This document shows, piece after piece, positions 41,790 through 45,775 of a stretch of 64,000 bases of DNA (position 1 is its first letter; each line of letters begins with the position of its first letter). This stretch comes from Escherichia phage vB_EcoM_112. The notes beneath the pieces are model-generated. The model was not told where the DNA came from. It worked only from the letters and a program-made list of their open reading frames with translations, and ran no database searches. The DNA lies in sequence record NC_024125.2, one strand, 5' to 3'. The translations under genes and the position numbers were made by a program.

Positions 41790-41790
<1 letters not shown>

Positions 41791-42515
41791 TATAGTACCT
41801 TTAGTGTATTTTTAATTTTAGAAAAAAGTTCTTCAAGAGAACCATCATTTGTAATTACTAAATCGCCATCACGAATTGGCAATCCAGCTTCTGTAATATG
41901 TGTATCATTGGATTTTTGACCAGGACGAACTACATGAATTACTGTAGCACCCATCGCCCTAGCCGCATCCATTTCATGATCTTGACGAGTATCAGGAACG
42001 ATATAATAATCATAACCTGAGTTAAATTTATCAAGATAATCTAAAGCAAATAATTTTACCCAGTACATGCGATCGAAGTTATTAACAATCAAATCCGTAC
42101 CTAGGGCTTGCATCAGACGACGGACTGACCATTGATCTTCAATATTATTTATAACGTCAATAATCTTGTTAAATGCTACGGAATTAACTGATTCTTGTCC
42201 TTCGTCATCAAAAACAAACACACCCTTAATTGGGCTTTTACCATTAAGATAGCAAAATGCTTGTTCCATAATCGTGATTACTTCTAATTTAGTCAGATTT
42301 AAATTAGTCTCACGATCATAGTCAATTCCTTCAAACTCTTTACGAGTTAAGCAAGGATAGTCGGTGTTTGCTGCAAATACTCCCCATGCATAAGCCAATG
42401 CATCCTTAATAGGACCAGCAAGTTGGTATTTAACTGCAGAATAATTGCTCATGATAAAATCAGCAGTAGTATCTTTTCCACTACGCTTTACACCGCTTAA
42501 AAATATTAGTTTCAT
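41790..42515 (-). CDS. 1: deoxynucleoside monophosphate kinase
   Basis: Start at MKLIFLSGVKRSGKDTTADF gives 241 aa; matches T4 gp1. Confidence 0.9.
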
Positions 42516-42564
42516 GTGTTTCTCCTCAAATTTAATTAAGATTATAACACACAAAACTGAAGCA

Positions 42565-43095
42565 TTAAACTTCTGCTATAATTTTGCCATCTTTTTCTAC
42601 TTGAAAATACGTATAAGGAATCGTTGCAGTACATACTAAAGCTGGGTCTGAATCTTCCGTATAGCTAAATTCTACTTCAGATAGGTCAGAAACCCAAGGC
42701 TTATAAAAATTTATTGACATCACGATTTCAGTTTTGCTATTATCTAAAATGTAAAGCGTAATGTACTCAGGACCTGTTTTTTGGGCAGTATTTTCACCTG
42801 TAAGATAGTTGCTAGTTCCTAGCATCCATTCATACATTCCTATCCACGACTTAAGTTCTTCATCAACTATAAATCTCACGATGAGTGGATCGTACTCAAA
42901 TGTAGCACCCGGTCGTTGTGCTCGACCTAGTCCAAACGGCCCAGTCACGGTATCAGTAACAGGTATTCTAATTCCTGGAATAGGAACTGACTGAGCATTT
43001 AAAGTAAAAGCAGATGTAGTATTACTGTGTGGTATTGATACTACAAAGTTAGTTGTATTTGCTTGGTTAAAAATTTGTTGCAGAGCTTGCGACAT
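42565..43095 (-). CDS. 3: gp3 tail-tube terminator/sheath stabiliser
   Basis: Start at MSQALQQIFNQANTT gives 176 aa as in T4 gp3; the upstream track extension was discarded. Confidence 0.85.
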   Translation of the reverse strand: MSQALQQIFNQANTTNFVVSIPHSNTTSAFTLNAQSVPIPGIRIPVTDTVTGPFGLGRAQRPGATFEYDPLIVRFIVDEELKSWIGMYEWMLGTSNYLTGENTAQKTGPEYITLYILDNSKTEIVMSINFYKPWVSDLSEVEFSYTEDSDPALVCTATIPYTYFQVEKDGKIIAEV

Positions 43096-43201
43096 ATATT
43101 CCTCATAATGCTTTATAATTGTTGGTGGTATAATGGGTCTAAGTCCCTTCCATTCAATTCCATTTAGAACAAACAACAGAAAAGAATGGAAGATAATAGA
43201 A

Positions 43202-43861
43202 TTAATTTATTAGACTTCTTAAACGAGCAGAAGTCATAAATGGAAATTTTTCTAAAGTTGGCTTTCGCCAATATCTCGGATGACAAGTTGATTTAAAATC
43301 AAGAACAATTTTCTTTGCTTCATCAATAGTGTTAACTCCAAAGTTATCTAACATTATTTTCTTTTCTTTTTCCCACCGTTTATTAGCTAAAGCAGATTGA
43401 AGCTTTTTGTTTTTAAATGTGTCATTTTTTCTAGAATGAGTTGTTCCTTGTGTCGGACTCCATCCTCTTCCTAAAATAAATCCCTCAGGAATTATATCTC
43501 CATCATGCAATTTTATACATCTTTTACCATTATTATAATATTTTCGTCCAGTTTGTGTATTTGAAATATTATTTGCATGTTTTCTTTTTAACCAACCATA
43601 AACTTTATTATTTCTCCTAACATATTTAGTTGAAACCGTCATTTTTATGGCTGCATAAGATAATTTTAAAGAATTTGGGTGTATTTTTACTAATAGCTGA
43701 TGTGCAACATAATGCTCTTCTGGAGTTAAATCAACCAAGTTAGAAGCACCATTACTACCGCCTAAACATTTCGGAATAATATGATGTCTTTCTTTATATC
43801 CAGTAAGGGCTCTATTGCGAGCCCTATCAATTAGTGAATTATAAATTTTTTCATAATTCAT
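43202..43861 (-). CDS. free-standing HNH homing endonuclease
   Basis: [12 protein letters not shown]...[18 protein letters not shown] motif; inserted between genes 2 and 3. Confidence 0.75.
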
Positions 43862-44685
43862 CGTACATTGCTCCAAACTTTGTTTGCAGAGAAACGTTTT
43901 CCTTTGGAGTAGAAGCTTTGGAGCGGCATCAACACAACGTTCGCCCAGTCTTTCGGGGCGATTTCAACAAGGCTACCCATAATATTACCAGGTATATATG
44001 CCTTAATCATTTGATCTGCACCCCTAAATCCTTTCACTTGACTCCAATCAATTTTTAATTTCGTTTTATTAGTAATAGTAGGTGTATTTGAATATTGCTT
44101 TAAAAGCTCTTCTAGAAACTGTTGACGAGCTTTAGGCGGAATATAGTGCAAGTTTAATCCGTACATTAAATTATGCTTACCTAAACCAAGGTAAATTATC
44201 AAAGGAAATTTATCCCAGTAAGGAAGAGTTTCCTTGTGTTTAGCATCATAAGCAAAAGCATATATTCGTCCCGGCTGCGGGCGAACAACTTTATGTCCTT
44301 TTACTTGCTTAATAGTTTCGGCAAACCACTTTCTGGTTTTATTATTAATTGCTGCACCTTCATTACGAATTTTATCACGCAATGTTTGTCTGAATGAATT
44401 TATCATAAGCAGTTGTCTTTCTTGCTTATTGAGTTTATTCATTGGTTTTGATTCAAGCTTTTGAATCTTTTCAGCCGTTTTAATTCCTGAAGCATATTTT
44501 GACATTGCTGAAGTAAACGTAGAGTATTTGATTCCTCTTTCTTCAGCAAATTGCTTTCCTGTCATTCCTTTTGCTTTGGCCTTTTTATATTCAAGACCTA
44601 TCTGAATCCATTTCTTTTCGTTTAATGATTGCTTAACCTTTGGAACTTGGGGAGTGCTTTCATTAATTATTTGAAAAATAGCCAT
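43858..44685 (-). CDS. 2: gp2 DNA-end protector
   Basis: 275 aa; T4 gp2-like sequence and position. Confidence 0.85.
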
Positions 44686-45137
44686 TATGCCCCCTTAAAG
44701 CCAAGAGCTCGTAATCCATCTTCTGTTAGAATTCTAAATTTTATTCCACGCTTTTCAGCTAAAGATTGTGCTGCTTTCCATTTGTCAGTGTTCACAGACC
44801 AGGTATAAATTTCATTCATAAATCTTTTCTTCGCTGCGGTTGTTAGATGTGCGGGTTTAACCGGTGGTTGTGTTTCTTTTTTAGGTTTTATTTCAATAAA
44901 AAATTCTTGCCCAGAAGAATCTTTCATCCAAATATCCATGAAGTATCTACGTTTTTTCCCTTCGGCATTACAAAAATAAGGAATTACTGCTGTTTCACTA
45001 CCCCATGCAATAATTTCTGGATTTTTATCTAACCATTCAAAAAAGAATTTTTCCCAATTTGATCTATACGTAATTTTTTTAGGGTCACCTCTATATTTTG
45101 ATATATTTTTAGGAACCCATTTTCCAGAATATGCCAT
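44685..45137 (-). CDS. 4: gp4 head completion protein
   Basis: 150 aa, [29 protein letters not shown]...; matches T4 gp4. Confidence 0.9.
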
Positions 45138-45148
45138 TGGATTCTCCT

Positions 45149-45156
45149 TATAAATA
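45149..45156 (+). promoter_or_regulatory. late promoter (TATAAATA) for gene 53
   Basis: Exact TATAAATA about 30 nt upstream of the gp53 ATG. Confidence 0.65.
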
Positions 45157-45163
45157 GATAATA

Positions 45164-45171
45164 TATTTATA
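45164..45171 (-). promoter_or_regulatory. late promoter (TATAAATA) for gene 4
   Basis: Plus-strand TATTTATA about 27 nt from the gp4 start; divergent from the gene 53 promoter. Confidence 0.6.
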
Positions 45172-45184
45172 AACAGGAGGGCCC

Positions 45185-45775
45185 ATGCTCTTTACATTTT
45201 TTGATCCGATTGAATATGCGGCCAAAACGGTGAATAAAAACGCGCCGACTATTCCTATGACAGATATTTTTAGAAACTATAAAGACTATTTTAAGCGTGC
45301 TCTTGCGGGATATCGCTTACGTACTTATTATATTAAAGGTTCACCACGCCCGGAAGAATTAGCAAATACTATATATGGAAATCCACAGTTGTATTGGGTT
45401 TTATTGATGTGTAATGATAATTATGATCCGTATTATGGATGGATTACTTCACAAGAAGCTGCTTATCAAGCATCTATACAAAAATACAAAAACGTAGGTG
45501 GAGACCAAATAGTATATCATGTAAATGAGAATGGTGAAAAATTTTATAATTTAATATCATACGATGATAATCCATATGTTTGGTATGACAAAGGTGATAA
45601 AGCTAGAAAATATCCTCAATATGAAGGAGCACTTGCTGCGGTCGATACGTATGAAGCTGCTGTTCTTGAAAATGAAAAACTTCGTCAAATAAAAATAATA
45701 GCAAAATCAGACATTAATTCATTTATGAACGACCTTATACGTATAATGGAGAAATCTTATGGAAATGATAAGTAA
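45185..45775 (+). CDS. 53: gp53 baseplate wedge protein
   Basis: 196 aa as in T4 gp53. Confidence 0.9.
   Translation: MLFTFFDPIEYAAKTVNKNAPTIPMTDIFRNYKDYFKRALAGYRLRTYYIKGSPRPEELANTIYGNPQLYWVLLMCNDNYDPYYGWITSQEAAYQASIQKYKNVGGDQIVYHVNENGEKFYNLISYDDNPYVWYDKGDKARKYPQYEGALAAVDTYEAAVLENEKLRQIKIIAKSDINSFMNDLIRIMEKSYGNDK

Follow-up and report, generated by a model that had tools for sequence, protein, structure and literature searches.

A Mob-like HNH endonuclease gene following gene 2 in Escherichia phage vB_EcoM_112 and its occurrence in the Straboviridae

I-HmuI is an intron-encoded HNH nicking endonuclease of Bacillus phage SPO1, and it displays the plan that is expected for this class of enzymes, namely an N-terminal HNH module, an extended linker and a C-terminal DNA-binding module. 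Closer to the subject of this work is MobE of phage T4, a free-standing HNH endonuclease encoded between nrdA and nrdB (Wilson & Edgell 2009, PMC2790892). The mobE gene is promoterless, its product nicks a neighbouring gene, and the carriers of mobE have polymorphisms in the target (PMC2790892). A further member of the class is T4 MobB, encoded between alpha-gt and alpha-gt.2, for which the review on T4 mobile elements gives no assignment of activity or target (PMC2988022). The T4 Mob proteins have been described with a C-terminal DNA-binding region of the zinc-finger type (PMC10448857). In phage RB32, two 'mob-like HNH' genes were listed (Petrov et al. 2010, PMC2993671), and one of the two is RB32ORF146c, the gene that is most similar to the one discussed here. 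Neither the T4 mobile-element review (PMC2988022) nor the MobE paper (PMC2790892) treats this gene, and no functional study of it was found in the literature searched.

The window that we analysed is a stretch of 64,000 nt from Escherichia phage vB_EcoM_112 (NC_024125.2). It is T4-like (Tequatrovirus), and its top matches over 24 kb are fPS-2, FL08, RB32 and RB33 at 96–97% identity, with no identical record in this 24-kb database comparison. The genes of interest lie on the minus strand in the order gene 4, gene 2, HNH ORF, a 106-nt spacer, gene 3 and gene 1. Gene 4 occupies positions 44685–45137, upstream of gene 2. Gene 2 (43858–44685) codes for the DNA end protector gp2, of 275 aa (PHROG 429, E=9e-80), and gene 3 (42565–43095) for the tail completion and sheath stabiliser protein gp3, of 176 aa (Pfam Phage_T4_gp19, E=2e-12; PHROG 45). 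The HNH ORF extends over 43202–43861, with 219 codons plus the stop and its ATG at 43861–43859; an alternative TTG start, five codons upstream of this ATG, would give 224 aa. Its start overlaps the stop codon of gene 2 in an ATGA sequence at 43858–43861, of the kind associated with translational coupling, and this overlap recurs in the orthologues in the same or in a 1-nt version. The GC content of the ORF is 29.8%, versus 35–37% for gp2 and gp3. The spacer at 43096–43201 separates it from gene 3. The initial annotation had placed a 219-aa HNH endonuclease between gp3 and gp2, with the start of gp3 preserved about 100 nt downstream, and in both respects it was right: its coordinates are exact and the spacer, of 106 nt, is unchanged. 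As for gene 1 (dNMP kinase; the region 41790–42515 of the window), the Tequatroviruses have alleles of 726 nt and 714 nt irrespective of the presence of the endonuclease (loci L061–L073), and the adjoining internal-protein gene differs among records, being ipI, Ip5 or Ip6.

Judged by sequence identity, the HNH ORF is already known. It corresponds to RB32ORF146c (ABI94970.1), annotated since 2006 in GenBank, where the record describes a 'putative site-specific intron-like DNA endonuclease ... similar to mobB; not conserved from T4 position'. The two are the same gene at the same junction, with the same ATGA overlap and 106-nt spacer and with 99.5% amino acid identity (218/219), and the 2.1-kb block from gene 3 through the HNH gene to gene 2 of RB32 has 98.4% nucleotide identity to the window. 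RB33, HY03, fPS-2 and others carry an ORF identical to RB32ORF146c. What distinguishes the window copy is a private D38G substitution and a host genome that is a different mosaic Tequatrovirus.

The full 2.1-kb version of the block was present in 35 of the 513 records that match it. Counting decayed copies, the HNH junction is carried by 36 of about 500 Tequatrovirus records (~7%), whereas a 200-nt probe across the empty junction found it uninterrupted in 464 of 502. The ORF is, then, not shared by T4 and all its close relatives: the junction is empty in T4, T2, RB18 and RB27 and filled in RB32 and RB33. The absence from T4 that the initial annotation had supposed is confirmed by NC_000866, in which gene 2 and gene 3 are parted only by the 106-nt spacer, with no ORF. 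The alignment of filled and empty sites places the insertion exactly at the stop codon of gene 2; the empty junction reads ...AAAGTCTGGTCAAATATCTAATTCTATT, and the filled one reads ...AAAGTTTGGAGCAATGTACGATG[HNH]...AATAAATTAATTCTATT. The spacer has the same length and a nearly identical sequence in T4, RB18, RB27 and F26, another phage with an empty site. One spacer variant was observed in Escherichia phage vB-Eco-KMB23, also with an empty site, which has a 20-nt insertion AATGGAATTGAATGGAATTG at about position 43165 that duplicates the local AATGGAATTG motif, and across which its annotators stretched gene 3 upstream.

The assignment of the protein to the HNH nucleases is based on several lines of evidence. 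The ORF matches PHROG 655 'homing endonuclease' (E=1.2e-57) and a 99%-identical protein cluster (E=1.8e-144), and it has 2920 homologues at E<=1e-5. In an alignment of 50 homologues, the residues H26, H27, N41, H50 and H54 are invariant and have the spacing of the HNH type; this catalytic motif (H26-H27...N41...H50...H54), recognized from the alignment and the profile, is intact in the window and lies at 43700–43786 on the minus strand. The family profile aligns E24–H50 to the McrA HNH motif EVHHVIPLSSGGADTTDNCVALCPNCH (6ghc, E=0.0034), and the motif of Cas8-HNH was aligned too. The AF2 model has a pLDDT of 90, exceeding 90 across the N-terminal HNH module, and it contains strands at residues 24–27 and 42–45 followed by a helix at 47–60, which is the beta-beta-alpha layout, with pLDDT values of 94–98; a second hairpin is found at 107–118. 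With this model, the best Foldseek results were the HNH domains of Cas8-HNH and McrA, although these were weak (E 0.4–3), and the fold searches gave nothing useful outside the HNH core. In the PDB, a search with the single sequence retrieved nothing meaningful, and one with the profile retrieved HNH motifs only. In Pfam the ORF had no match at E<=0.01 and merely sub-threshold HNH matches at E<=10, below the gathering thresholds of PF01844 (HNH; 12.8 bits vs 21.4) and PF14279 (HNH_5; 15.3 vs 27.5), and in NCBIfam it had one sub-threshold match to IscB HNH only. The Mob subgroup is simply divergent from the Pfam HNH models, hence the low scores. Judged by its homologues and its invariant HNH residues, which exclude a chance ORF, the ORF at 43202–43861 is a genuine gene.

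The two halves of the protein have different relatives. The N-terminal nuclease module (~aa 1–100; 43562–43861, minus strand), defined by tblastn and AF2, is common to T4 MobA, MobB and MobE. The tblastn searches gave 44% identity to mobB of T4T over aa 1–114 (E=1e-21), about 45% to mobE of RB3 over aa 1–111 (E=1e-19) and 44% to the T4 ORF beside gene 39, at the position of mobA. The matches to the Mob genes and to many others span only residues 1 to about 100 or 130, a segment that is common to hundreds of ORFs with different C-termini in other phages and in metagenomes. A conserved linker with a beta-hairpin (~aa 100–135) joins the nuclease module to a C-terminal helical domain (~aa 150–219; 43205–43414, minus strand), for which AF2 models four helices at residues 152–174, 179–190, 199–205 and 211–218 with pLDDT values of 90–97. 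This domain presumably binds DNA and gives the enzyme its site specificity. When the last 84 residues (aa 136–219) were used alone in tblastn, only 76 phage records were matched, at one place each, and all of them were T4-like phages. The domain is thus peculiar to this family, whose copies are placed behind gene 2. The shared N-terminal module together with a C-terminal domain confined to T4-like phages indicates that the enzyme belongs to the Mob class of HNH endonucleases and is built of modules, the C-terminal one being specific to the locus. Residues 100–219 have no Cys/His cluster in their sequence, the four helices being modelled instead, and since other members of the family in the 50-sequence alignment have C-termini of the CxxC type, the C-terminal module has been swapped.

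One position sets the window copy apart. Codon 38 (43747–43749) encodes Gly (GGSNGASN), whereas Asp (GGSNDASN) is found in all of the nine other Tequatrovirus copies compared. This change within the HNH loop is shared by no phage record, since even the best match in the database has 99.5% identity. It is probably harmless or neutral, since position 38 is variable across the wider family.

Comparison with the described systems helps to situate the gene. It resembles MobE in the homologous N-terminal HNH module (~45% over aa 1–111 for RB3 MobE), in being free-standing between two conserved genes without a promoter of its own, in its sporadic presence in close relatives, and in the polymorphic patch that carriers have in the neighbouring essential gene. 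It differs from MobE in its insertion site, in its unrelated C-terminal half and in the position of the target, which for MobE is the downstream gene and here, as a candidate, the upstream one. Moreover, nicking and preferential inheritance are experimentally supported for MobE, whereas for the present gene both are predictions. MobB of T4 belongs to the same Mob class (44% over aa 1–114), but the similarity ends after the nuclease module and its locus is about 35 kb away, and it is not an orthologue. The record of phage CAM-21 (OP611477.1) names the ORF 'mobB', a label that is misleading because only the nuclease module is shared with T4 mobB and the locus is different; annotators should note that 'mobB', as found on this ORF in some records, is wrong as a statement of orthology. 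With regard to I-HmuI, which is intron-encoded, unlike this free-standing gene, I-HmuI-like Pfam domains or NUMOD3 (PF07460, PF22083) are found in some members of the HNH family; the ORF itself had no NUMOD match at E<=10, and I-HmuI (1U3E) was not retrieved with it by PDB sequence searches or fold searches.

The expression signals of the locus were examined by pattern scans and RNA folding. An exact T4 late-promoter box, TATAAATA, is located upstream of gene 4 (45164–45171, minus strand), and it is the sole exact late box able to drive genes 4, 2, HNH and 3. The HNH ORF and the sequence directly preceding it contain no exact box, the prediction of terminator-like sites on the minus strand gave none from 42484 to 45300, and the sigma-70 promoter scan was at background (11 sites vs 11.8 expected). 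In the absence of its own promoter box and of a terminator, and with the ATGA overlap, the gene looks promoterless and translationally coupled to gene 2; mobE is likewise described as promoterless (PMC2790892). The filled and empty junctions also differ in the last codons of gp2, TCA AAT ATC TAA being recoded as AGC AAT GTA CGA TGA (WSNI* to WSNVR*), and gp2 accordingly has 274 aa ending in ...WSNI in T4 and 275 aa ending in ...WSNVR in the window. As seen in the alignment of the two kinds of junction, this recoding created a GGAG sequence 9 nt before the HNH ATG (43871–43874, minus strand), a putative ribosome binding site. Gene 4 and gene 53 are separated by 47 nt, and in this gap two exact TATAAATA boxes lie back to back, at 45149–45156 on the plus strand and 45164–45171 on the minus strand, which is the divergent late promoter pair to be expected here. 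Around the start of the endonuclease gene, two hairpins are predicted in the minus-strand RNA (43822–43941; z=-2.7 for a 121-nt fold), the second of them with an 11-bp AU-rich stem that begins at the G of the AUG; this structure is not conserved in other genera.

Full-length orthologues, with 45–64% identity where measured, were found directly after gene 2 in every lineage examined, their start codon either overlapping the stop codon of gene 2 or lying no more than a few nucleotides from it. The carriers are Citrobacter phage Ursula, the Gaprivervirus phages UPEC07, VR25 and QL01, Erwinia phage Cronus, Serratia phages SP1 and 4S, Kosakonia phage 305, Providencia phage PSTRCR_121, the assembly-derived contigs L075, L076 and L079 and, in a different subfamily, Acinetobacter phage Morttis. 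In L079 the endonuclease is followed by a gp4-like gene and not by gene 3, thus the constant partner is the 3' end of gene 2. Site fidelity holds over two subfamilies of the Straboviridae. Scans of metagenomes and IMG/VR with the orthologue alignment gave nearly always relatives of the N-terminal module with other C-termini, QL01 and VR25 being the only full-length loci gained from them. The initial annotation had considered the insertion specific to one lineage. That it is an insertion stands; lineage-specific it is not, with its sporadic presence in Tequatrovirus and its orthologues in many genera of the Straboviridae. Annotated before and present in more than one lineage, the gene is a Mob-like homing endonuclease gene of an ordinary kind.

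Other endonuclease ORFs were observed in the same region of several T4-like phages outside Tequatrovirus. Just upstream of gene 4 there is an ORF annotated as homing endonuclease in UPEC07 (L006, 46–753) and in PSTRCR_121 (L241, 1–143), and an unannotated ORF of 229 aa in contig L075 (569–1258). Within the late block, the junction of gene 53 and gene 4 may represent a further hot spot for endonucleases; in the window this junction contains no endonuclease ORF. In L013, L015 and L020 (~1340–1940), a homologue of the HNH module lies some 600–1150 nt upstream of gene 2.

Our main reading, to which we give a probability of about 0.8, is that the HNH ORF and RB32ORF146c are one element, a free-standing gene for a homing endonuclease of the Mob (HNH) type of T4, and that this element spreads by homing. 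Its nuclease activity, its target site and its homing are what we infer from the sequences. The principal competing explanation is that of a defunct or domesticated passenger, immobile and inherited vertically or by ordinary recombination, and perhaps kept since its loss would disturb the expression of genes 2 and 3. Several copies are visibly decayed, as this explanation would have it. Shigella phage CT01 has a 57-aa in-frame deletion remnant without the nuclease domain (L003, 2138–2311); in FL23 (L063, 2138–2796) and FL44 the gene is frameshifted after codon 60; in Manna (L067, 1501–2796) a 1-nt deletion fuses the ORF to gene 3, annotated as a 431-aa protein; and the copy of CE1 has lost one codon, although some of these changes could be sequencing errors. 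Also in line with a passenger are the private D38G of the window copy, the T4-type sequence that the Gaprivervirus and Kosakonia carriers have in gene 2 (see below), tolerable if the enzyme is inactive, and the fact that most T4 Mob proteins are without demonstrated activity in the table of PMC2988022.

Nevertheless, we judge a passenger unlikely. The invariant catalytic residues are all intact in the window copy and in 32 of the 36 Tequatrovirus copies, and the fidelity to one site across two subfamilies argues against it as well. Population data point in the same direction. Among 10 carriers, the nucleotide diversity pi is 0.004–0.010 in the HNH ORF versus mostly 0.02–0.04 in the flanking windows, so that the diversity of the ORF is 3–5 times below that of the flanks of the same genomes. 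When 10 carriers were compared with 10 non-carriers, dxy equalled the within-group pi everywhere except at 43202–43921. There is no extended co-conversion haplotype round the insert, the HNH-linked stretch ending about 60 bp upstream, and the element sits on flank haplotypes that are otherwise unrelated. With low diversity in the ORF and undifferentiated flanks, recent horizontal spread fits better than old vertical descent; one young allele that enters backgrounds with free recombination would leave such a pattern, whereas old vertical inheritance would match it poorly. The homing reading is also supported by the states of invasion, decay and loss seen in a single genus, with intact genes, frameshifted genes, a deletion remnant and empty sites.

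The linked stretch upstream of the insert contains a substituted patch at gp2 codons 255–260 (43906–43921, minus strand), a candidate for the target or for a determinant of self-immunity. The window reads CTC CAA AGC TTC TAC TCC (LQSFYS) in place of the T4-type CTT CAG CAG TTC GTT TCA (LQQFVS), with the changes Q257S and V259Y. The patch stands 45–60 nt upstream of the insert and the 45 nt in between are T4-type. Every one of the 36 Tequatrovirus records that have the HNH junction, whether the gene is intact or decayed, contains LQSFYS, whereas the records with an empty junction comprise 15 with the variant patch and about 451 with the T4-type one. F26, EC128, SG1 and others are natural examples of a variant patch with an empty site. 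A similar contrast exists in Serratia phages, where SP1, with the HNH gene, has QSFQ versus QQFV in its relatives L012 and L016 without it, with gp2 C-termini that are otherwise nearly identical and flanks of 84–86% identity. Counted by lineage, nine carriers have QSF(Q/Y) or QNFQ and three have QQF(V/F), versus two non-carriers with a variant patch and nine with QQF(V/M) or QRFV (Fisher p=0.012, uncorrected for phylogeny). A universal association of the gene with QSF(Q/Y) had to be discarded; it is broken by the Gaprivervirus carriers (UPEC07, VR25 and QL01) and by Kosakonia phage 305, with QQFF or QQFV. The variant patch also occurs without the HNH gene, in L011 and in the 15 Tequatrovirus records, and two sites only 45 bp apart, such as patch and insert, would be linked by their closeness in any case. 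The contrast between the two patch types resembles the polymorphisms that MobE carriers are reported to have in their target. We propose, tentatively and at somewhat less than even odds, that the enzyme might act on the last ~60 bp of gene 2 with the patch as its target or immunity site. A broader version is possible but more doubtful, in which a site-faithful, long-lived homing lineage would target gp2 codons ~255–260 across two subfamilies of the Straboviridae and the same escape (Q257S, V259Q/Y) would have evolved repeatedly, in carriers and in some non-carriers.

The patch might also be explained at the RNA level, as an anti-Shine-Dalgarno strand that holds the translation of the HNH gene low, with no role in immunity. 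We rate this explanation as slightly less probable even than the passenger. In the minimum free energy structure, the window allele of the patch, GCUCCAAA, pairs with the Shine-Dalgarno sequence UUUGGAGC, in the 121-nt fold with z=-2.7, and the probability that the latter is unpaired is about 0. The local hairpin has -15.3 kcal/mol with the real patch versus -8.7 kcal/mol with the T4-type patch, a similar pairing is found in Ursula, and a hairpin that sequesters the ribosome binding site has been reported for mobE, as cited in PMC2993671. However, RNAalifold on eight carrier lineages found no shared structure and no covarying pair, and the pairing of patch and Shine-Dalgarno sequence is absent from the minimum free energy folds of five of the eight. 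In addition, a chimera with the T4-type patch is predicted to keep the Shine-Dalgarno sequence paired, with another segment, and the codon of Y259 lies outside the helix. As a feature of the family, anti-Shine-Dalgarno pairing was rejected, given the lack of conservation and covariation in the eight lineages and the inconsistency of the single-sequence folds.

Under the homing reading, the element might work as follows. The late transcript initiated upstream of gene 4 would include the HNH gene, whose translation would be coupled to that of gene 2 by the ATGA overlap, through the GGAG that the element itself brings about. In a co-infection with a phage of empty junction, such as T4, T2 or most Tequatroviruses, the enzyme would introduce a nick or cut at the junction of genes 2 and 3 or within the final ~60 bp of gene 2, and recombinational repair from the HNH-bearing genome would fill the break with a copy of the 660-bp gene. 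The insert, which interrupts the junction, would protect the genome of the carrier, and the patch at gp2 codons 255–260 would probably contribute to this protection. By analogy with MobE (PMC2790892), a biased inheritance of the flanking markers may reasonably be supposed. That the nuclease is primarily a weapon of the carrier in co-infection, damaging the gene 2 region of its competitors and cutting their yield with the spread of the gene as a secondary effect, we consider very improbable. In favour of a weapon are the presumed target, at the 3' end of a late gene that is essential, the late timing that the promoter upstream of gene 4 would impose on expression, and the report of an intron endonuclease in interference competition (PMC11620839). 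However, nothing in the sequence tells a weapon from ordinary homing, and a frequency of ~7%, the existence of decayed copies and the 15 genomes with 'resistant' patch and empty site point to a selfish cycle, unlike a fixed beneficial weapon.

To our knowledge, a target has been mapped for MobE only among the T4 Mob enzymes. In our opinion, the value of this HNH gene is mainly practical, as a clean experimental system. Target mapping and marker exclusion should be straightforward, given that T4 itself has a clean empty site and that nature provides decayed copies as well as genomes combining the variant patch with an empty site. If the proposal for the patch is true, it would provide a defined target and a natural resistance allele for a Mob enzyme, and the cross of RB32 with T4 would be a ready system for studying homing and interference.
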